In this document: piece after piece, positions 1 through 61,145 of the stretch
Layout of the letters: the number at the start of each line of letters is the position of its first letter
Numbering within the stretch: the stretch's first letter is position 1
DNA from: a virus
Reading direction: 5' to 3' (one strand)
Virus record (IMG/VR): IMGVR_UViG_3300043425_001673
Coordinates: 30,772-94,771 of that record
Length of the DNA stretch: 64,000 nucleotides
Translations under genes and position numbers: made by a program
Notes under the pieces: generated by a model
Told to the model about the DNA's origin: nothing
The model's input: only the letters and a program-made list of their open reading frames with translations
Database searches by the model: none

Positions 1-1656
1 TCGGTATCCGGGGGAACCATCAAGCGTGATGGTTTGGATTGGAGCGTTCCGCTTGTCACTGTCGGCCAATTTGTTCGGGTTGGCTTTGCCTATAATGCGG
101 CTGAAAACTGGGTTGATACGACTTTCAGTTCGGCATCGGTTACGCTTGGTGCGCTCACCGATCCTGGGGTTCTCCTTGATGCTCTTACCGGAACCAAGAT
201 CGGTTACATTGACCTTGAGAGTGATGGAGTTTCCAGCTTCAAAACGCCGAATTCGGTGTCAGGTTACATCGAAAACGCTGTGTCGGGTGTTCCCTATATC
301 TTCCGCTTTTTGAGCGGCGGTGGAACCGGGACGGGCACCGGGGATGCATCGACAATCAGAACGGCGCTGGAAAACCAGCTGCAGGAATCGACCTATGATC
401 TTTTGACAGCTGTTGATTTTGCCATTGATGAGGATGCCTTTGTTGACTTGGCATCGACAGGGATCTATTCCAATCGCAAGTTTGTTCTTGCCGTCTCAGG
501 CGACACATTTGAATCCATCAATTTGTTTGATGCTTCAGAATATTTGGCTGATCCGACCATTCCATCAAAGATCGACATCACAGCCTTCTGGGATGCGCTG
601 GCGATAGACGCCGATGCCGTTTACGAAGTCAGCCGTGATGGTGGGGTTGATTGGCAGACTGTTTCCGGGATGGAGCGGGTTGGTGTTGCGACGAATGGTT
701 TTGTCGGAACCCATATCTTTGATTACGGGACCGATTCGACCTTCACATCCAACACAGCCGCGCAAACCAGCGGCTATGAGATGAACAGCACAAGCCAGAC
801 CACCTATCAGGACAGTTTCGCTGTTCTTGAGTCGTCGGTAATTCGCCGGGTTCAGCTTTTGAACTTTGTGAAGACGGGAAGTCCGGTTGGAAATCTGTAT
901 GTCGATATTTGTGCTGATAACGGCGGGAATCCTGGCAACGTTCTGGCCACGTCCTCGGGTGTCGCGGTGTCCGGTCTTTCCTCGGGAACGGTGACGATTG
1001 ATGTATCGGAAGCGGCTTTGGTGGATGGAACCTACTGGGTTGTGGTGCGTACCGATGCCGTTTACAAATCCAGCTTCTCGGCAGGTGTTACGAGCGTCAC
1101 GCTTTCCTTGAATGCCAACGGACTCAGAGGCAATTATCAGGGCTATGTGCTTGACCTTCGGCTTCGGATCACTTCAGCAAATCCGAATGTGAACCTGACT
1201 GGCTTCGGTGTCTTTTACATGCAGTCGATCGGAACCGTGCAAGGCGGCTCGATCAAAAAGGATACGAAGATATTTAGAACGACTGAAAACCTCAATGAGT
1301 TCACGCTGAACTTCATCGCTGATCCTGATCTTTTGAAGTGTTATCACATCGAAACCGGACAGGTTTATCACCATCCGGCTTTTGCGCTTTCCGGTTCGGA
1401 TGTGACTTTCCCGGTCAACACCTTTCAATCCATCTCTGATGAGCAGGTCACGCTTCTTTTCCTTCAGGTTGAAGGATCAAGCTTTGACAATAGCGACCTG
1501 AATGCAGCGCTTCTGGCTGCAAACTTCCTTGGATCAACGGATACTCTCGTGGATCGAAGTTCAAGCGGTCGCGGTATTTTCCTGAGAAGACCTGATGGGA
1601 CCTTGAGGGAAATCACAATCGACAATAGCGACAACATAGCTGTCTATAGCGTTTAA
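1..1656 (+). CDS. Virion structural protein (tail fibre/baseplate-associated), 5' partial
   Basis: Frame is open from base 1 (SVSGGTIKRDGLDW...). The protein is G/S/T/V/D-rich and beta-type, and lies upstream of fibre genes. Confidence 0.65.
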   Translation, partial: SVSGGTIKRDGLDWSVPLVTVGQFVRVGFAYNAAENWVDTTFSSASVTLGALTDPGVLLDALTGTKIGYIDLESDGVSSFKTPNSVSGYIENAVSGVPYIFRFLSGGGTGTGTGDASTIRTALENQLQESTYDLLTAVDFAIDEDAFVDLASTGIYSNRKFVLAVSGDTFESINLFDASEYLADPTIPSKIDITAFWDALAIDADAVYEVSRDGGVDWQTVSGMERVGVATNGFVGTHIFDYGTDSTFTSNTAAQTSGYEMNSTSQTTYQDSFAVLESSVIRRVQLLNFVKTGSPVGNLYVDICADNGGNPGNVLATSSGVAVSGLSSGTVTIDVSEAALVDGTYWVVVRTDAVYKSSFSAGVTSVTLSLNANGLRGNYQGYVLDLRLRITSANPNVNLTGFGVFYMQSIGTVQGGSIKKDTKIFRTTENLNEFTLNFIADPDLLKCYHIETGQVYHHPAFALSGSDVTFPVNTFQSISDEQVTLLFLQVEGSSFDNSDLNAALLAANFLGSTDTLVDRSSSGRGIFLRRPDGTLREITIDNSDNIAVYSV

Positions 1657-1671
1657 TAGGAAAGCAAAAAT

Positions 1672-3990
1672 ATGGCAAGAGCACTTGTTGGAAATCTTGG
1701 TGAGACGGTTTCAAAGATCAGTGAATCATTCACTGATCTTCCAAAGATAAATGTTCCACTTACGAATATTGTGAATCGGGGACAAATCACAGACTTTGCG
1801 AATGATGGTCTGCCAAAGTTTGCAATTGAAAGAGTAAATATTCAAACGATCGTTGAAGTTCATAATGAAAGCGGTCCTGCTGGGCAAAAAGTATGGAAAG
1901 CAGTTAATGATATTCATGATCAAATCCGCTTTTATGGACCTTGGACGAATCCTGTTGATGTAAACGGCCAAAGACCACAAGGCGCATCAGGTGCTGTATG
2001 TGAGATCACATTTTATGGAACTGGATTAAATCTTCTTCGTTATAACGACAGTTCAAACAGAACTTTTAGTTATAGTGTTGATGGTGGTGCCTCAAACAAC
2101 GTAACAGGCGCATGGTCTGATGCCATTCTTGCAAGAAGTTACAATCCCAACATAGTATTCAATCTGACTTCAAATCTTACTCTTGGCTGGCATACTGTTA
2201 TACTTACCAGTTCCAGTAATGCTCTTGGTGTTTTTGGATTTGAAGTCATTAATTCAAGTGCAAATATATTTCTTCCGACTACCACAACTTATTCTGCTGG
2301 AAAAAAACTTTCAGCAGCATCAGGAACGACTGCTTATAATTCAGGTTTTGAATCAGGAACACTCGGGACTCGTGGTGGTCATGTTTTAGTTTATCAAAAA
2401 TCTGATGGAACAATTGCCAAAGCGGTAACTCCAACAAACGCAAGTGCGGCTTATCTATCCAGTGCTGACCACACCAATGAGGAAATGATAAGAAGATTAA
2501 ATCCAAGAGAATTTGGCGCTGGAAGATCCGATGATTTTTCGACTGTCACCATGAATGGAAGTGAAGTTCTTGCCTTCACTCTCGATGACGGAACTACAAC
2601 GTTGATGTCATCAGGGGCATATTTTAACAGTTCTCATCAAGGTTATCTGGGTAACAACACGGTCGGGGTGTATTTTACTCTGACATTTGTTGGAACTGGT
2701 CTTGATATAACGCATTTCCCTTTTAATACAACAGGCACTCAGACATGGTCTGTGACAATTGACGGCGTGGCTCAGGGAAGCTATGATGTCACAGCTGATT
2801 CAGGTTTGATTAAGAAATATAAAATTTGTTCCGGCCTTCCCTATGGCACTCATAATGTTCGCATCACAACAACAGCAAATCCTGCAGGCGCTCAACTATT
2901 TACGTATTTCGATATTTATGCTCCAAAAACACCTACACTCCCATCCGGTGCTGTAGCTCTCTGTGATTATTTTATCATGGCGGATTTTGCTGCAAACAGC
3001 ACGGCTGGTGTTGAGCGAATATCATCAGGTGTTTTGAGAAAAGTTTCCACGCGAGAATTCACTTATGTAAATGGCACGGGTGGAACAGTGGATTGGCAAG
3101 TTGGTGGATCACCTTTTACAAGTAATATTGGTGGTCCTCAGCTTGAGACAAACAGACAAAACGCATATTTTGAATATACGTTTTTTGGAACTGGTTTTGA
3201 TTATAGGTTCCCTTCTATTTCCAGTGGCTCAGCAAATATTCAATTATCTTTGCAGAGTCTATCGACAGGTGGATCGCTTCAGAATTTGACCACCGCAAAT
3301 TTCCCGACTATTTCTTCATCAGTTTATGGGACTGGCGCAGCTTTTAATGCAGCAACCGGCGTTATGGATCAGCTGGATGCTTCAAACACTGTTGGTTGTG
3401 GAATCGTAATATCAGGATTACCTTTAGGGTTATACAAAATAAGATTTTTGAATAATACTGCTAGTTCGTATATTGTTCCCAGTGTTCTTGATATTATCAC
3501 GCCTATACATGCTCCGAAGGAAATTGGCCCTTCAAGATTGCAAAACATTTCTTTAATAGGATCTAATGCGATCCGTGATCTTAGAAATTTTTCCTCTTTG
3601 ATAATAGCTAATCAAAGTTCTTTATGTCAGGCCATAGGGATTGTTTCAGCGCCAACTACTACATCTGGTTCTGAAGTTCCTTTAAAAGATTCATGTGTAG
3701 TATTGAAAACCACAGGAAAACCTGTTTTTGTAGTTTTTGATGGGATTTTCACAAATAATTCAGTTGGTCAAACAACTGATGTTCTCCTTTATGTAGACGG
3801 AATTGGTGTTGGAGCTACAAGACGCCAAGCGATGCCAGCAACAAGTGGTTATCGGTCTGTGGTATCTTTTTCATATATGCTTGAATTGTGTGCTGGAACT
3901 CATAAAATTGATGTTTATTGGGCAGTTTCAGGAGGAACGGGTACGGCTATTGGTGGCAATAGAACTTTGATTGCGAGAGAAGTTCAGTAA
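1672..3990 (+). CDS. Tail fibre / receptor-binding-like protein (paralog of 41441..43741)
   Basis: 772 aa with repeated beta-sandwich units (TFxGTGL...VDG...GL..G.H.V); collinear with 41441..43741. Confidence 0.7.
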   Translation: MARALVGNLGETVSKISESFTDLPKINVPLTNIVNRGQITDFANDGLPKFAIERVNIQTIVEVHNESGPAGQKVWKAVNDIHDQIRFYGPWTNPVDVNGQRPQGASGAVCEITFYGTGLNLLRYNDSSNRTFSYSVDGGASNNVTGAWSDAILARSYNPNIVFNLTSNLTLGWHTVILTSSSNALGVFGFEVINSSANIFLPTTTTYSAGKKLSAASGTTAYNSGFESGTLGTRGGHVLVYQKSDGTIAKAVTPTNASAAYLSSADHTNEEMIRRLNPREFGAGRSDDFSTVTMNGSEVLAFTLDDGTTTLMSSGAYFNSSHQGYLGNNTVGVYFTLTFVGTGLDITHFPFNTTGTQTWSVTIDGVAQGSYDVTADSGLIKKYKICSGLPYGTHNVRITTTANPAGAQLFTYFDIYAPKTPTLPSGAVALCDYFIMADFAANSTAGVERISSGVLRKVSTREFTYVNGTGGTVDWQVGGSPFTSNIGGPQLETNRQNAYFEYTFFGTGFDYRFPSISSGSANIQLSLQSLSTGGSLQNLTTANFPTISSSVYGTGAAFNAATGVMDQLDASNTVGCGIVISGLPLGLYKIRFLNNTASSYIVPSVLDIITPIHAPKEIGPSRLQNISLIGSNAIRDLRNFSSLIIANQSSLCQAIGIVSAPTTTSGSEVPLKDSCVVLKTTGKPVFVVFDGIFTNNSVGQTTDVLLYVDGIGVGATRRQAMPATSGYRSVVSFSYMLELCAGTHKIDVYWAVSGGTGTAIGGNRTLIAREVQ

Positions 3991-22043: not shown

Positions 22044-24335
22044 ATGCGTATTTTGTTTTATGCTAAGAGTCCTGATGCGACAGAGGTTTATAGGGTTCAG
22101 ATTCCAGGCAAGTATCTTGCGAGAAAGCCTGGGATCGAAGTCCGCATGACTTACGCTGAAAAGCATCCCAAGTTTCCTGATTCCGGTGTGAAAAATCATG
22201 ACATTCAGTGGGCTGATGCGATCATCTTTCAAAGGCCAGCGACTGAACTTGTTCTGAACGTTCTGAAAATCATCAAAAATAACCATCCTGACAAAATCAT
22301 CCTGCTCGACTACGACGACGACTATTACAGCGTTCCAACCTGGAATCCTGGATATACCTTCATTCGAGTCAATGAGAAGTTCTGGCCACAGTTTCCGGCT
22401 CTCGTCGATGGAGTTATCACATCGACCGAGCCTTTGGCTGATGTCTTCAGACAAAAAACGGACAAGCCGATAACGGTGATTCCGAACGGATTCGATTTTG
22501 AGGAATTTGATCAGATAGAGTCAGCGCCGGATCTTTTCATTGAAAACCCTGGCTACGACAAGAAGGCAAACAAGTCCTATCGAAACTACAGTCTGAACCT
22601 CAATGAGTTTCGAGCGGTCCAGGAAGGCAGGCATCTGATCACCTGGGCTGGTTCAAGATTTCACTTCATGGATCTTGAATACATTGCAGAGGACGTGAAA
22701 AAGATCATCAAGGAACGCAGTGATGTGAACTTCATGTTTGTCAGTTATTTGCAGGCGAACGTGCTGAAGGATGCACCACCAAACAGAATTTACAGCACAG
22801 CCGGAATGAGTCCTGTGTCAAGATTCTATGGCCTTTTGAAGGCGCTTGATTCGGACATCATGCTGGCACCGCTTGATCCTTGTCAGTTTAACCGGAGTAA
22901 GTGTGTTGTTGGGGGAACCAGAGTAGTCACAAGAAATGGCATATTTGAAATTAAAGATTTGGTTCCCCATAGAATTAACGATGCCATTACACCTATTGAA
23001 ACATCAGTATGGGTTGATCAGGATCAAAATTGGAAAGCTGCTAAGGCTTCTTATTTTGCTCTGAATCAAGCAACAATTAAACTTCAGACATCATTTGGAT
23101 ATGAGATAGAAGGTACTGAAGATCATCGCATTCAAAATAAGGACGGTGACTGGGTAAAGCTTTCTGATTTTCGACTAGGTGATGAGATTAAATTATCGCC
23201 ATTTGAATTTCCTGAAGTTCCTTATCAAATGACGCAATGGCCATTTATGACGAGCAGGGTTGAATTGAATTTCCCTGATTTTGAGGCATTGAATTGCGCC
23301 AAGTTGATTATAAACGAAGATTGGGGACGGCTATTAGGTTATATTCTTGGTGATGGTTATATGAATGGAGTCAATCGTGTTCAGATAAGTTGTACGAGTG
23401 ATCATACTGATGTGATTGAAGATGTAGAGAGACTTTTTCATTCAATTGGTTTGCGATCATTTAGATCACAAAAAAAGCCGAAAAAAACAGCCAAAGGCGT
23501 GGATATAGTGGTAACAAGCACTCATCTTATGCGATGGCTCAAACATCATAATTTGATAGGTCCAAAAGGGAAGGTTTTTAGAATTCCAGAATTTATAATG
23601 AAAAGTCCAAAGTCGGTTATCTGTGAGTTTTTGAGGGGATTGTTTGAGTCTGATGGTTATACTGTTGAGCATGATCAGTGTCTTGTTGGTCTGACAAGTA
23701 AAAGTAGAGAACTTTTACAGGATGTGCAATTTTTGTTATTAGGCTTTGGTATCAAATCAAAGATTGTATCCAAGAAGATTAAACTTCAACAATGGTTAGA
23801 GCCAAGGCATTATTGGGAGTTACAACTTCGGTCTAAATCATCTCGAATTTTCCATGAGAAAATAAATTTTATTTCCTGTAAAAAGCGTGAAAAATTAGCT
23901 GTTCGGACTAAGTCAAAGCCAAGCAACAGAACTGATGATTGGGATTGGTCTGACAGTGTTGTATCCATACAAAAATCAGTGGCAGATGTTTTTGACATCA
24001 CTGTTCCTGGTCCTAATTATTATCTTGCAAATGGTTTTGTGAGCCATAACAGCAATTTAAAAATTTTGGAAATGATGGCACTTAAGGCTTTCCCGGTTTG
24101 CAGCCGTTGGGATGCCTATGAGGATGATCTTGATCCAGAACTGAACGACGACACTACGCATGGACTTTTGGTCGGCTATGAGCGTGGTGATTGGTATCGC
24201 GCAATGAATGAAGCCTTGGAGCGATCCAGGGACAAATCCTTCAAGGCAGTCAATGACGCTTATGTGAGAGCAACGCACGATGCGAGTCTGCGTTCAGATT
24301 TATACATCTCATTCATCGAAAGTTTGAAAAAATGA
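22044..24335 (+). CDS. GT-B glycosyltransferase (GT4-like) interrupted by an intein
   Basis: YRV..P, IFQR, DYDDD, VIPNG, WAGS..H..DL and APL...FNRSK|SNLKILE after removal of the intein. Confidence 0.85.
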   Translation: MRILFYAKSPDATEVYRVQIPGKYLARKPGIEVRMTYAEKHPKFPDSGVKNHDIQWADAIIFQRPATELVLNVLKIIKNNHPDKIILLDYDDDYYSVPTWNPGYTFIRVNEKFWPQFPALVDGVITSTEPLADVFRQKTDKPITVIPNGFDFEEFDQIESAPDLFIENPGYDKKANKSYRNYSLNLNEFRAVQEGRHLITWAGSRFHFMDLEYIAEDVKKIIKERSDVNFMFVSYLQANVLKDAPPNRIYSTAGMSPVSRFYGLLKALDSDIMLAPLDPCQFNRSKCVVGGTRVVTRNGIFEIKDLVPHRINDAITPIETSVWVDQDQNWKAAKASYFALNQATIKLQTSFGYEIEGTEDHRIQNKDGDWVKLSDFRLGDEIKLSPFEFPEVPYQMTQWPFMTSRVELNFPDFEALNCAKLIINEDWGRLLGYILGDGYMNGVNRVQISCTSDHTDVIEDVERLFHSIGLRSFRSQKKPKKTAKGVDIVVTSTHLMRWLKHHNLIGPKGKVFRIPEFIMKSPKSVICEFLRGLFESDGYTVEHDQCLVGLTSKSRELLQDVQFLLLGFGIKSKIVSKKIKLQQWLEPRHYWELQLRSKSSRIFHEKINFISCKKREKLAVRTKSKPSNRTDDWDWSDSVVSIQKSVADVFDITVPGPNYYLANGFVSHNSNLKILEMMALKAFPVCSRWDAYEDDLDPELNDDTTHGLLVGYERGDWYRAMNEALERSRDKSFKAVNDAYVRATHDASLRSDLYISFIESLKK
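22902..24050 (+). mobile_element. Intein (383 aa) with LAGLIDADG homing endonuclease
   Basis: Starts CVVGGTRV; block B GTEDHRI; LLGYILGDG and FLRGLFESDG; ends ANGFVSHN followed by Ser. Confidence 0.95.
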
Positions 24336-56980: not shown

Positions 56981-57782
56981 AACTAAAATTGTGACCATCT
57001 TTGGTCATGAACTCACGCTTGAAAAAAGAGTCTGCCTTGGTGGATGCAAAAAGGAGTTCTGGGTTTGCCCGGAAAGTCAGGCTGTCCATGCGAGAAGCGA
57101 TTGCCTGTTTGTCTGCAATGTTCCCATAGATGATATCCCTGAACACATCATGAAGCGCTATGACAAGGATTATGATCGTGATTCATGGGAGCAGGAGAAA
57201 AAGGACTTTTCGCGCAATCTTTTTGCCAAGACCAACAGCAAGACCAAACCGCCAAAGAAGACCGCATTCCTTCCCAAACCAAAACGAAAGCCCAAGGAAA
57301 TAGATACGGGAAAGATTGAGCGTGAGAAAAGACGCTGGAACATTGCTGTTTACCGGGTAAGACGTATCCTGCAAAGGCGTGAAGCCATGCCACGGTTTAG
57401 GGAGTCGGTTGCATGTATAGCCTCTGCTGTTGTGAAAAACAAAAAGAACTTCAGCATCAAATGCTTTTCAAGTCTTGTCGGTCTTGATAGAAAAACGCTT
57501 CAGTGCTGGATTCATGTGAAGTCGGATGTTCTTGATCATTTGACTGTTTACGATGGAAACTTTTTGGCTGCAAAGAAAACAAGGGAAATATTGAAGTCAC
57601 AGCCTGATGGTGGTTTTGATATGAACGAGGTTTTTATTCAGGAGTCCATCAAGTGCATGATGCCACAAAAAAGACAAAGAAAAAAAGAAATGGAAAAATG
57701 CTCGAATGGTTCCTCGATAACCAGCAAATCTGGAAGGATCAAAGCCTATCGGATGAAGATAAAGATAAAATCCGTTTCCTGA
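56913..57782 (+). CDS. Basic hypothetical protein with Cys4 (CxGGC...C...C) module
   Basis: Module paralogous to that in 9281..10258. Confidence 0.6.
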   Translation: MRGCMITKMEPPQLTQVSSQGIETKIVTIFGHELTLEKRVCLGGCKKEFWVCPESQAVHARSDCLFVCNVPIDDIPEHIMKRYDKDYDRDSWEQEKKDFSRNLFAKTNSKTKPPKKTAFLPKPKRKPKEIDTGKIEREKRRWNIAVYRVRRILQRREAMPRFRESVACIASAVVKNKKNFSIKCFSSLVGLDRKTLQCWIHVKSDVLDHLTVYDGNFLAAKKTREILKSQPDGGFDMNEVFIQESIKCMMPQKRQRKKEMEKCSNGSSITSKSGRIKAYRMKIKIKSVS

Positions 57783-57860
57783 TGCACATGAACGGGATCA
57801 ACCATAAGGATACGCTGTTTATGTTTGACGACATGAGAAAGGAAGCCTTGATGATTTTAG

Positions 57861-60800
57861 GTGAAACGCATGATTATAACGGACAAATTTAAATCATATT
57901 CCCTATTCACCGATGAGGAACTTCAAAACAGTATCGCTCAGGATATCGACAATATGAGCGAGGCTGAGCGTGCGGTGTTTTTTGAACTGCTTAACAATCC
58001 TCAGTTTGAAGGGGATTTGACCGCACTGGAACTTGATCGGGATATGGTATCGGTTGAGCAGTGGATTGAAGATGATTACTACATGGGAGCCTTGGGCAAG
58101 AGCATCTATAAGCCATGGAAGGATGATCTTCTTGAACTCTTTGAATCATGTGCCTACGACACGGCTGTCATTCAAGGGGGTATTGGCTGTCAAGCCGAAA
58201 AGACGCAGATTATGACAGACAGTGGATTGATTGCGATGGGGGATCTAACCTCATCACACAAATATCTGTCTTACGACAATGGTAAAGCTAGATTTGTGCA
58301 AGGCACACACGCTTTTGTAAAAGGCAAAGACATGCTTTACAAGGTAAGGCATGCCTCTGGTGAATTTGAAGCTACAGCACATCATAAGGTTTTATGTGCT
58401 GATGGTTATTACAGGCGTGTTGATCAGCTTGCTGATGGTATGCAGATTGTTTCGAGCGATAAATTTCAAGATGATGTTTCATGTGATCTTTCTGTGACGA
58501 AAACACTTCGAGGTTTTCTGGATCATTGTTTCTTGGATTCTCATCTATGTGATGAACTACTTCAGTTGGCAAAAGATATCGGTCAAGTTTCTTTTCCATC
58601 ACAAGTCGATGCTCAGGCATTGTCAGCTTTTTACCGTAAAGTGGATGCTCCTTTGGAACACTCACTTTTACATACTCAGTCCTGGTCTTTCCTCCCGTCC
58701 AAAAAGGGTTTTTGGAACCCTTCGGTGGACCGGCTTTTCTTTGATTCAGACCTTGCCTATGCAAAAATTTTTCAACAGAGTTATGGGATCTTCCAACGGA
58801 TGTTGCAATCTCGGAAAGTGGATGTCCTGCCTCGTATAGCGCAAGCACTTTCTCTTTTTGTTCAGAAGACATTCCCCGAGGATTTGCAACGCCTTTACGT
58901 CCCCCTTCTGAACGCCTTGGTAAATCATTTTTCAAAACATAACGAATCACAATATCAGGTGAAGGACGGCCAATCGCTTTCATTATCTCTTCATAGGATT
59001 TTTGTCCGTCTGATAGCTCATGGATTTGTGCTTTCTCGTTCTCGGTCAAAGGCTTTTGAAAATAGGGCAGGTCAAGCTTGCGAACCCAGGCTCTCACCGT
59101 CTCAGGCGATTTCCCAATTACTGTTGCGATGTCGTCAATCTTTGTTTGGAAAGAGGCCATTTTCTTTATCGTGTCTATCTGCTCTTGGGTTAATTTCAAA
59201 CTCACTTGATTCTGTCTCCTTTGGTTTTTCCAAAGTAATGTCGATAGAAAAAACAGTTACAGATTGGTATTGGGATTTGCAAGTGCCAATGACCAATAAT
59301 TATGTGTCAGGTGGTGCGGTGCATCACAATTCAGGTAAGTCAACTTTTTCACACCTTGCCGTTTTGAGGATGCTCTATGAAGCATCTTGTCTCAAAAATC
59401 CGGCTGTCAGCTATGGCCTTGCTCCCAACTCCATCATTGGTTTTTGTTCACTGGCAAAATCCAAGGAAACCGCACGGCGGGTTGTGTTTGAGCAGATTGC
59501 TGCGAAGATTCAGGAGTCGCCTTATTTCAAATATGAGTTTGCGCCTGTCAAGGATGTGAAGGATGAAATCATATTCCCAAAGGGACTTGCAATCATTTGC
59601 GGTTCATCAACGGACACATCCATCATCGGTATGAACATCTTCGGTGGAATCATCGACGAAGTGAACTTCTGGGGAAAGGTGAAAAAGACCAACCTCAATT
59701 TTGGAAAGCACTGGGGAACGGAAAGCAAGTCAGGTAGGCTCTTTGATAGCGTTCGCCGAAGGATGAAGTCGCGCTATATCAAAAAGGGAAAACTCCCTGG
59801 CATCCTGATGCTTATCTCATCGAAGACAACCAAGGACAGTTTTACTGAGCAGTTCATCAGAAAAGAAAAGGCTCTCGGCAATAACTCCACCTTTGTCCGT
59901 GACCGCTCAATTCTTGACATGAAGCGTGACAGCTTTGGCAGTAACACCTTCAAGGTCCTGATCGGAACCGTGGACTATCCCTCGCGTATCCTCATAGAAG
60001 GTGAGGATATTTCAAATCTGACTGATGCCATGGTCATTGAGATTCCCGATGATTTCCGTGTGGACTTTGAAAACAACCTGGAAGAGTCGCTGCGTGATAT
60101 TGCGGGTGTTTCAACCATTGCCATATCCAACTTCATTTCCAAACTTGAAAAAATCAACGAGATGGTTGACGACAGGTCCCATCCTTTCCAGTGTCCGCTT
60201 CTGCCTGATCCAACCATTTGGGATAGCCGCAAGCCATACAAAATCAACTGGCATGCGCTCTGCACTCAAAAGGACAACGGTGAATGGGTTCCGAAACTCA
60301 ATCCCGATGCACCACGTCATGTCCACTTCGATCCGGCTTATACGGGTGACGCCTTTGGTCTTTGCATTGCGCACATCGGGGGAATGCAGGCCGTTCAGAA
60401 GGAAGGTGAGATAATCGAGTATCAGCCTATCTTCATCGTCGATTTCATTCTGGCCATACAGGGAAGCAAGGAAGAGGAAGTCATTAACCGCAATGTGCGG
60501 GAACTCTGTTATGAGTTTTCCAATCATGGATTTCATTTGGCTGAGTTCTCAATGGATACTTATCAGTCAAGGGAAATGGCTCAAAGCCTTGAGATGCAGG
60601 GCTACAAGGCAGGCATCTACTCGGTCGATACGGGGATTTCAAGCAAGGGTGAGAACGTTGTCAATACAGCGGTCGGCAAGGTTCCAAAAGCGAAACAGGC
60701 TTATTGGTATTTGCGCTCTGCCATATATGAAAATCGTGTCAAATGTTATGATTATCCAAGACTCCTGATGGAACTGAGGAAACTGGAAGACACGCCTGAG

Positions 60801-61145
60801 AAGGTGGATCATCCCGAGGGAGAAAGCAAGGACTTGGCTGATTCACTGTGCGGTGTGGTCTGGACTCTTTTCAGATCGAAAAACCATGCGGAACTGCCTT
60901 TGCCTTCAAAGGGTGTGACAGTGAATCCCGGCTCCGAGGTGGAAACTCTTGCGGACTATGCGGAAAGTCTGAAGCAGGATATGTCAGTTGAAGCGGGTTC
61001 AAGTCAGGTGATCGAAATCAGGCAGACAAAGGTTTATGAGAAAAAGAAGCATCAGACCGTGTCACCGAAGTATCAAAAGGTTTCGACCAATGGCACAGTC
61101 AAGGACCTGACCATAAACACCGAGGACTATCTGGTTCGCGGCTAA
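57861..61145 (+). CDS. terL: Terminase large subunit, intein-containing (about 713 aa after splicing)
   Basis: Walker A GGIG|SGKS restored by intein removal, Walker B GIIDE, coupling motif LISS, nuclease HFDPA...D and KDLADS; adjacent to portal. Confidence 0.93.
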   Translation: MKRMIITDKFKSYSLFTDEELQNSIAQDIDNMSEAERAVFFELLNNPQFEGDLTALELDRDMVSVEQWIEDDYYMGALGKSIYKPWKDDLLELFESCAYDTAVIQGGIGCQAEKTQIMTDSGLIAMGDLTSSHKYLSYDNGKARFVQGTHAFVKGKDMLYKVRHASGEFEATAHHKVLCADGYYRRVDQLADGMQIVSSDKFQDDVSCDLSVTKTLRGFLDHCFLDSHLCDELLQLAKDIGQVSFPSQVDAQALSAFYRKVDAPLEHSLLHTQSWSFLPSKKGFWNPSVDRLFFDSDLAYAKIFQQSYGIFQRMLQSRKVDVLPRIAQALSLFVQKTFPEDLQRLYVPLLNALVNHFSKHNESQYQVKDGQSLSLSLHRIFVRLIAHGFVLSRSRSKAFENRAGQACEPRLSPSQAISQLLLRCRQSLFGKRPFSLSCLSALGLISNSLDSVSFGFSKVMSIEKTVTDWYWDLQVPMTNNYVSGGAVHHNSGKSTFSHLAVLRMLYEASCLKNPAVSYGLAPNSIIGFCSLAKSKETARRVVFEQIAAKIQESPYFKYEFAPVKDVKDEIIFPKGLAIICGSSTDTSIIGMNIFGGIIDEVNFWGKVKKTNLNFGKHWGTESKSGRLFDSVRRRMKSRYIKKGKLPGILMLISSKTTKDSFTEQFIRKEKALGNNSTFVRDRSILDMKRDSFGSNTFKVLIGTVDYPSRILIEGEDISNLTDAMVIEIPDDFRVDFENNLEESLRDIAGVSTIAISNFISKLEKINEMVDDRSHPFQCPLLPDPTIWDSRKPYKINWHALCTQKDNGEWVPKLNPDAPRHVHFDPAYTGDAFGLCIAHIGGMQAVQKEGEIIEYQPIFIVDFILAIQGSKEEEVINRNVRELCYEFSNHGFHLAEFSMDTYQSREMAQSLEMQGYKAGIYSVDTGISSKGENVVNTAVGKVPKAKQAYWYLRSAIYENRVKCYDYPRLLMELRKLEDTPEKVDHPEGESKDLADSLCGVVWTLFRSKNHAELPLPSKGVTVNPGSEVETLADYAESLKQDMSVEAGSSQVIEIRQTKVYEKKKHQTVSPKYQKVSTNGTVKDLTINTEDYLVRG
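58188..59330 (+). mobile_element. Intein (381 aa) in the terminase P-loop
   Basis: Block A CQAEKTQIMTDSG, block B EATAHHKV, blocks F/G WDLQVPMTNNYVSGGAVHHN followed by Ser. Confidence 0.93.
58372..59205 (-). CDS. HNH homing endonuclease with three HTH-like repeats, encoded antisense within the intein
   Basis: EHRLVME...VVHHIDENPRNNDPENL (HNH), KGSKNPFWTGG, three HTH-like repeats; GTG start with AAAGGAG 10 nt upstream. Confidence 0.9.
   Translation of the reverse strand: MSLKLTQEQIDTIKKMASFQTKIDDIATVIGKSPETVRAWVRKLDLPYFQKPLTENEKAQIHELSDGQKSYEEIMKAIGRPSPDIVIRYVLKNDLPRRSEGGRKGVANPRGMSSEQKEKVLALYEAGHPLSEIATSVGRSHNSVEKFLHRQGLNQRKAGPPKGSKNPFWTGGKTRTEYVKVSVPKEHPLYGKKLTMPEHRLVMEKKLDRYLLPTEVVHHIDENPRNNDPENLEVFSSQKDHMKHHLEIYRSKQSAYHQQADQHACNNHQHIKPYDVL

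Follow-up and report, generated by a model that had tools for sequence, protein, structure and literature searches.

A terminase gene split by an intein at its P-loop

We analyzed a 64,000-nucleotide stretch of viral DNA (hereafter the window), the final 64 kb of the 94,771-bp IMG/VR viral record IMGVR_UViG_3300043425_001673 (estimated completeness of the record 67%). Its gene for the terminase large subunit (terL; product TerL) is interrupted within the Walker A motif, or P-loop, by an intein whose opposite strand carries an HNH endonuclease gene. The terL reading frame is open on the plus strand from a GTG at 57861 to 61145; because relatives begin MII/MIV (MIITDKF/MIVSDRF), the likely start is the ATG at 57870, three codons after the listed GTG. 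The C-terminal 604 residues match the PHROG_2 terminase large subunit family (E 1.8e-13), and the precursor of ~1091 aa would yield a mature TerL of ~710 aa once spliced. A megablast search of terL against cultured phages gave no match. The features of this strand are listed below, where A2 denotes an alignment of five family inteins and A5 an alignment of 36 members.

57870..61145, plus strand: terL precursor coding sequence (open reading frame list, PHROG_2 match, relatives' starts)
57870..58187, plus strand: N-extein, ending ..IQGGIG, the first half of Walker A
58188..59330, plus strand: class-1 intein of 381 aa, C1 ... HHN, then S+1
58188..58457, plus strand: N-terminal splicing region, intein residues 1-90 (block A, C1; block B, T63-A-H-H66)
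58458..59222, plus strand: sense-frame linker, a stop-free read-through of the antisense gene without conserved protein sequence
59223..59330, plus strand: C-terminal splicing region (SKVMSIEKTVTDWYWDLQVPMTNNYVSGGAVHHN), its block invariant in A2 and A5
59331..61145, plus strand: C-extein, beginning SGKS, the second half of Walker A, and including the stop codon

An initial annotation of this DNA had described the terL P-loop as split by a 381-aa intein with intact splicing blocks, and each block (C1, T63-x-x-H66, H380-N381 and S+1) is indeed in place. Cys1 directly follows GGIG and is present in all five members of A2; H66 is invariant in both A2 and A5; and H379, H380 and N381, which precede S+1, are invariant in A5. 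The C-terminal block (DWYWDLQVP..NNY..G..HHN) is likewise invariant among relatives. Removal of the 381 residues that separate GGIG from SGKS restores a GGIG+SGKS Walker A motif, and an uninterrupted GGIGSGKS is seen in a related terL (L007).

Profile searches place the splicing signal at the two ends of the insert. The only Pfam family matched by the sense insert is Intein_splicing, at both ends only (E 2.3e-6). A profile of the five family inteins searched against the PDB matches solved inteins only (best E 3e-4), in the N-terminal (6-91) and C-terminal (310-342) parts, and the C-terminal splicing region corresponds to the C-terminal blocks of solved mini-inteins. The linker matches no Pfam or PHROG family, in line with the initial view that the sense middle is a shadow frame. 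A split intein or fractured gene was considered and rejected, since one continuous open reading frame (ORF) runs through the whole insert.

An HNH endonuclease gene on the opposite strand

The minus strand of the intein encodes a 277-aa protein with helix-turn-helix (HTH) modules and an HNH domain. Its features are as follows.

58372..59205, minus strand: antisense HNH gene, 277 aa, with a GTG start at 59205 and a TAG stop at 58372-58374 (Pfam, PHROG)
59216..59222, minus strand: Shine-Dalgarno-like AAAGGAG, 10 nt upstream of the GTG
58756..59187, minus strand: three HTH modules, residues 7-43, 55-92 and 114-150 (secondary structure of the model)
58465..58728, minus strand: HNH_3 catalytic domain, residues 160-247, EHRLVME...VVHHIDENPRNNDPENL...H241 (Pfam)
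58375..58457, minus strand: C-terminal tail of the HNH ORF, not conserved, which continues to the first stop, antisense to the N-terminal splicing region

This gene, with its GTG start and AAAGGAG, had been read from the letters alone, and ORF, Pfam and PHROG analyses all recover it. The protein scores 41.8 bits against Pfam HTH_38 (threshold 27) and 33.7 bits against HNH_3 (cut-off 24.8, residues 199-240). HTH_38 and HTH_23 both match residues 110-150, with a weaker HTH_Tnp_1 match on 8-44, and the best match to the PHROG HNH endonuclease families has an E of 4.6e-19. Hidden Markov model searches of both frames thus gave the pattern that had been predicted, an intein-splicing signal at the sense ends and HNH_3 plus HTH on the antisense strand. 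An in-frame HNH domain was rejected as a description of the locus: HNH matches lie in the antisense frame and none in the sense frame.

An AlphaFold model of the protein (mean predicted local distance difference test score, pLDDT, 87; 22-sequence alignment) consists of three three-helix modules and a beta-beta-alpha core. In VIA-align comparisons the HTH part superimposes on the GcrA DNA-binding domain (Z 8.2, root-mean-square deviation 1.6, 48 residues aligned) and on Tc3 transposase (Z 7.0), and residues 160-247 superimpose on the homing endonuclease I-HmuI (1u3e_M; Z 5.7, root-mean-square deviation 5.2, 75 residues aligned, 27% identity). A Foldseek search of the whole model against the PDB returned weak HTH-type matches only, and the A3 profile searched against PDB sequences matched the HTH repeats only.

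Conservation extends to the catalytic His and Asn residues of the beta-beta-alpha-metal motif. R200, H219, N231, L232 and H241 are invariant in 37 nested homologues and H218 and N227 nearly so across homologues; the window protein has all of them. Read from the GTG, the N-terminus is conserved with that of the closest homologue (P0001), and a Shine-Dalgarno-like motif precedes the antisense start in five of the first five relatives and in ~31 of 40 clusters. The last ~28 codons run antisense through the N-terminal splicing domain, as had been noted (58375-58457), and cannot be aligned with homologues; the TAG stop overlaps the Thr codon of intein block B. AT skew is reversed across 58250-59450. 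Terminator-like sites in 57600-59800 occur at chance level only, and the 94,771-bp record holds no second copy of the HNH gene.

The terminase frame is kept open across the nuclease gene

Each sense codon in the overlap consists of positions 2 and 3 of one HNH codon plus position 1 of the next, so that every HNH codon with TT, CT or TC at its end creates a sense stop if the next codon starts with A. The terL frame nonetheless contains no stop across the HNH ORF; the two remaining plus-strand frames have 8 and 15. We compared this count with three null models of 20,000 runs each: permutation of synonymous codons, resampling by the codon usage of neighboring genes and shuffling of codon order. 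These yielded means of 10.4, 13.8 and 13.6 stops, respectively, and not one of the 20,000 runs of any model was stop-free. Four diverged relatives gave the same result (no sense stops where 11-17 are expected; none of 5,000 runs stop-free). The stop-free sense frame is not due to chance and is actively maintained. The avoidance test that the initial annotation had called for thus came out clearly (0 stops against 10-14 expected), and its notion that the insert is tolerated because the reverse frame happens to lack stops gives way to a frame that is actively kept open.

The same counts bear on the concern, raised from the start, that an in-frame HNH domain was inverted by misassembly. The window does come from a metagenome-derived viral contig; an accidental inversion would, however, leave ~10-14 sense stops, and no family member has an in-frame version of this HNH. 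The layout and frame relation recur in eight cultured phages with finished genomes and, across different samples, in more than 40 diverged clusters. We regard an assembly artefact as having a practically negligible probability. Inversion misassembly was accordingly excluded from the candidates, given the recurrence of the layout in independent assemblies and complete cultured-phage genomes.

One frame per segment is under protein-level selection

We then compared the two frames over the same bases. Amino-acid identity between family members is 0.30-0.57 in the HNH frame and 0.15-0.48 in the sense frame, and is higher in the HNH frame in 10 of 10 pairs. Identity of the sense middle is 15-29% between members, with the exception of one close pair (L014/L020, 48%). 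In a close cluster of 20 sequences, 74% of nucleotide differences fall at HNH third positions (81% within the core ORF). Because the HNH third position is the sense second position, such changes alter the sense residue every time.

Along the intein, most variation lies at sense wobble positions in the two splicing parts, N- and C-terminal, and at HNH wobble positions in the middle. This switch from sense to HNH and back to sense holds even where the HNH tail of relatives spans the whole N-terminal splicing region. The wobble pattern therefore indicates one master frame per segment. As for the other frame of each segment, the sense middle is merely kept open and the antisense N end is a passive tail. 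The initial annotation had called for a test of selection per frame, and these comparisons favor HNH in the middle. The linker itself is probably translated, disposable and disordered.

Antisense ORFs that span the whole N-terminal splicing region occur in L014:199-939 (minus), L020:7364-8116 (plus), L081, L100, L111, L119 and the Pectobacterium phage Taid. Their tails are long, at ~90 codons, reach to within 7 nt of the intein start, and lie where the sense frame is the selected one.

True dual coding, in which the sense middle is itself a functional intein domain such as a DNA-binding or regulatory module, could account for a sense frame that is open in every member and for the long helices that AlphaFold places, at low confidence, in sense residues 102-332. 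Against it, sense-middle identity is below HNH-frame identity in every pair, variation is concentrated at sense second positions, the sense middle matches a family in 0 of 36 members, and mini-inteins that lack the middle retain the splice motifs. We consider dual coding very improbable.

The nearest relative of the window TerL (P0106) shows how selection has acted more recently. Identity is 96-97% in the exteins and, over a gap-free alignment, 78% in the intein. Across the HNH span, 61 differences are explained unambiguously by single-nucleotide changes, of which 37 are HNH-synonymous and 24 are not; the synonymous share exceeds the 28% expected (binomial P 1.4e-7; omega ~0.25). This comparison suggests that the HNH gene has been under purifying selection since the split from P0106, and that this selection is recent.

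These numbers also speak to the idea that the element is fixed and homing has ended in the window phage, the HNH ORF being an intact-looking relic on its way to a mini-intein. No intein-less sibling of the window phage was seen and P0106 also bears the intein, mini-inteins occur in the family, and no promoter was detected in 57600-59800. A decaying gene would fit poorly with a full-length ORF that retains its conserved N-terminus, Shine-Dalgarno motif and all invariant catalytic residues, or with changes since the P0106 split that are biased toward HNH-synonymous ones. We judge this account quite unlikely.

A large family of terminase inteins with antisense HNH genes

A search for related loci with the single HNH protein found nothing, and DNA patterns and an alignment query were used instead. 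Four of the nine matches to a first DNA pattern in metagenome and genome collections were due to chance (L013, L015, L017, L021). A sense profile built from five inteins was searched against 1.84 billion cluster representatives and matched 697 of them at E <= 1e-3, 193 at 1e-10 and 43 at 1e-30, most being terminases of 700-830 aa with a 280-390-aa insert near the N-terminus.

Searching IMG/VR for the C-terminal splice block as a DNA pattern (NNY-x6-HHN-[S/C]-x-K) identified 111 stretches with 101 host ORFs of >=300 aa. An antisense open frame matching the HNH profile is present in ~88 of these 101, in the same frame relation in all, mostly at E 1e-14 to 1e-84 (one weak remnant, 3e-4), and none of the 101 contains an in-frame (sense) version of the HNH. 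Clustering at 70% identity groups the 68 unique sequences among these antisense ORFs into 41 clusters. Pfam detects HNH_3 in 34 of 37 nested representatives; among 36 sense inserts it detects Intein_splicing in 24 (E <= 1e-3) and no other family. Three host ORFs exceed their cluster mates by 350-950 aa (L037 and L127, 1175-1183 aa; L162, 1783 aa), a length suggestive of further inteins or of fusions within the gene.

The alignment query found relatives of the window HNH in at least 564 IMG/VR stretches. Among the best 80 of these, 76 lie antisense inside an intein-profile ORF, all in frame relation 0, and the host ORF is continuous in 76 of 76. From these matches, the HNH subfamily is almost entirely intein-resident. 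Because relatives share the frame relation and have homologous splicing and HNH parts, the union of intein and HNH is old and moves as a unit. The initial annotation had proposed a free-standing HNH gene inserted backwards into a mini-intein. The composite nature of the element stands, and a recent insertion in the window phage does not, given that 76 of the 80 best relatives are nested.

The other four of the best 80 are free-standing genes (L141:324-1028, L188:2165-2779, L195:476-1108 and L208:2261-2890). In three of these four, a Cys-rich (zinc-finger-like) N-terminus takes the place of the HTH modules.

The family extends to cultured phages. A tblastn search of the window HNH against GenBank phages identified the Pectobacterium phages Taid, Pappous, Koroua, Amona, Ymer, Abuela and Sabo and the Dickeya phage Setonix, and the same eight are the only ones to match across the insert among 839 cultured-phage records with a homologous TerL. 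The TerL of Taid is a 754-aa 'hypothetical protein' adjoining the portal gene. It belongs to Terminase_6 and reads AGFG^C...HIHHN^TGKS, with carets marking the splice junctions. Its coordinates in PQ008975.1 (L129) are as follows.

1640-3904, minus strand: intein-bearing terL of Taid, a Terminase_6 TerL
2983-3708, plus strand: antisense frame of 242 aa with HTH and HNH, on the opposite strand of terL

Neither the intein nor the nuclease of Taid is annotated. In the eight genomes as a group, TerL is labelled 'hypothetical protein' or unannotated, and the nested HNH is annotated in none of the eight. The nuclease is missing from annotation, and TerL is often a 'hypothetical protein', because gene callers cannot report both strands.

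Alternative alleles and probable horizontal movement

The allele types that had been predicted for the P-loop site all exist: empty, mini-intein and antisense HNH. Within the terL clade of the window, L007 has an empty site; L002, L003, L005 and L006 have a canonical in-frame intein of LAGLIDADG type; and the window, P0106, the L009 group, L008 and P0108 have the antisense-HNH intein. In the wider family, members without the HNH are mini-inteins. Mini-inteins of 127-155 aa with shared splice motifs occupy the P-loop site in L038, L063, L104, L022, L088, L035, L066 and L061. In the L061 mini-intein, 81 aa of antisense frame remain and match HNH weakly (E 3e-4); it may be a decay intermediate.

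The hosts span at least three TerL families: the type of the window, Terminase_3 (P0109, P0111, P0113) and Terminase_6N/6C. Insertion junctions vary (GGIG^C, GGYG^C, GSVG^C, GGQG^C, AGNR^C, GGNR^C and others), and the insert is always upstream of Walker A [S/C/T]-G/A/S-K-[S/T].

The relationships of inteins do not follow those of their hosts. L002, the closest terL with DNA (80% C-extein identity), carries a LAGLIDADG intein at the P-loop site whose splicing parts are 31% (N-terminal) and 45% (C-terminal) identical to those of the window, and distant or unrelated terminases carry the intein type of the window with splicing parts that are 31-48% and 54-82% identical. In L023/L117, the exteins differ from their cluster at 54% of third positions and the HNH at ~10%; because of this gap, the element in L023/L117 is much younger than its host gene. 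Patchy alleles together with incongruence between intein and extein point to horizontal movement as a unit, that is, homing.

Purifying selection on the HNH shows that it has a function without specifying which. In some phages, cos cleavage requires an HNH protein whose gene adjoins terminase. The nuclease could serve the phage itself and not be the homing enzyme of the intein: it could be packaging-associated, working with terminase, or act on competitor or host DNA, with the intein as a safe parking place. Within the window's terL clade, however, the empty and LAGLIDADG alleles lack the HNH, and the phage would accordingly need no HNH. It also travels with the intein over three unrelated TerL families, always at the P-loop, and its HNH_3 plus HTH composition is the architecture of I-HmuI-type homing enzymes. 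The young intein of L023/L117 and the existence of mini-intein derivatives without the HNH gene likewise speak against such a role, which we consider unlikely.

Two further inteins touch on these loci. The window contains a second intein at 22902-24050 (plus), which is canonical and in-frame (LAGLIDADG_3, E 4.6e-22; Intein_splicing; Hom_end). Its Intein_splicing score of 38.1 bits is above the cut-off, and it provides an in-genome contrast to the terL intein. The TerL of P0106 (1502 aa) has a further intein of ~400 aa at GDAFGM^C...VHN^CIAH; the corresponding window terL site (60362^60363, GDAFGL^CIAH) is uninterrupted, an empty allele for this second terL intein.

A proposed two-strand homing element

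The preferred reading, to which we assign a probability of roughly 0.78, is that the Walker A codons of terL house a two-strand selfish element composed of Hint splicing regions and an antisense HNH homing endonuclease. It builds on the observed architecture, stop avoidance, frame-specific purifying selection, family conservation, patchy distribution and alternative alleles. In the proposed mechanism, the class-1 Hint ends would excise the 381-aa insert and rejoin GGIG to SGKS, leaving packaging unharmed. The gene on the opposite strand, with its own start and ribosome-binding site, would yield a 277-aa I-HmuI-like HNH_3 endonuclease. In a mixed infection, this nuclease would nick or cut an intein-less terL at or near the P-loop codons, and recombinational repair would copy the intein and nuclease gene together. 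The inserted allele would be immune, since the insert splits the target site.

Several points weigh against this two-strand homing reading. Splicing, the translation and timing of the antisense gene, the specificity of the nuclease and current homing in the window phage are inferred from sequence. The Intein_splicing match of the sense insert, at 27.9 bits, is under the Pfam gathering score of 35.8; we assign the insert to the inteins on the strength of its motifs, of the family profile and of a P-loop that its removal restores. The AlphaFold model of the sense intein (mean pLDDT 44; 50-77 in the beta-rich ends, 23-58 in the middle) was built on 5 sequences only and is weak evidence for a disordered middle. 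The structural match of the HNH to I-HmuI is modest (Z 5.7), though over the right domain. The Shine-Dalgarno-to-GTG spacing of 10 nt is rather long, and a promoter scan of 57600-59800 found no sigma-70-like promoter on either strand. For the P0106 test, the relative was compared as protein only, and nucleotide changes were reconstructed by parsimony along single-nucleotide paths. Horizontal transfer is evidenced in other clusters of the family and not in the window's own lineage.

A set of stronger proposals is possible but doubtful: that the antisense orientation is an adaptation, that the HNH_3 subfamily is an obligate partner of P-loop inteins, that the nuclease has its own early transcript, that this transcript dampens terL by antisense, and that Walker A serves as a target across ATPases. 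Were they true, a separate transcript would allow the nuclease to be made early or independently of the late terL message, and the universal Walker A coding sequence, as a target, would open unrelated terminases, and possibly other P-loop ATPases, to the element. The element would then be the commonest intein type of phage terminases, yet invisible to gene callers.

Comparison with known systems

The initial annotation knew of no described example of such a layout. That claim does not hold, as antisense LAGLIDADG and VSR-like intein endonucleases have already been reported (bioRxiv 10.1101/2025.01.02.630785). According to this preprint, antisense LAGLIDADG inteins are present in Synechocystis DnaX, a Chloroflexus SpoVR-like protein and actinobacteriophages (citing Gorbalenya 1998 and Gogarten 2002). 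The window element fits the layout of antisense-endonuclease inteins but not their reported nuclease types (LAGLIDADG, VSR-like). The literature searched described no intein with an antisense HNH; the layout is known, and the HNH version alone appears to be unreported.

Antisense LAGLIDADG inteins share with the window element an endonuclease ORF on the opposite strand between the splicing blocks and a sense frame that is open and spliced out. They have also been given the same interpretation, capture of a free-standing endonuclease gene by an intein. The differences are that the window nuclease combines HNH_3 with HTH modules and is not a LAGLIDADG enzyme, and that its family is large, resides in the Walker A loop of several TerL families and is found in non-actinobacterial phages. 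The actinophage survey (bioRxiv 10.1101/2025.01.02.630785) also describes phage terminase inteins with a nuclease from another frame or strand, provides evidence of ongoing transfer and proposes that such inteins arose when a free-standing endonuclease gene invaded an intein. Its scope is limited to the actinophages of PhagesDB, and it describes HNH only as an in-frame intein domain, with no antisense HNH.

Three other systems resemble parts of the element. I-HmuI-type HNH_3 nicking enzymes (PDB 1u3e) have the same His/Asn catalytic core and a modular DNA-binding region, and they too serve selfish elements of phages; they are encoded on the sense strand in phage group I introns, whereas the window enzyme is antisense in an intein and has three HTH modules. 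The out-of-frame HNH in the ShiLan methylase (2025, PMC11855218) is also an HNH hidden inside an open host ORF and missed by gene callers. It lies on the same strand in another frame, without a detectable splicing domain, and its insert stays in the host protein. Fractured genes (Dassa et al. 2009, PMC2677866) likewise have a free-standing endonuclease gene at an intein insertion point in phage-like DNA, with terminase among the hosts; they consist of two ORFs joined by trans-splicing, with GIY-YIG or Vsr-like nucleases, whereas the window ORF is continuous, stop-free and spliced in cis.

A layout deemed a rare curiosity is here the standard form of a large family, which resides in an essential phage gene, at its most conserved motif. 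The overlap constitutes a natural experiment in which one frame is selected for protein and the other only for absence of stops, with a clean changeover at domain borders, and the eight cultured Pectobacterium and Dickeya phages make the mechanism directly testable. Among known systems, the family sits between contiguous inteins and the split-intein fractured genes, and it supports an order of events in which splicing came first and the nuclease was captured later.

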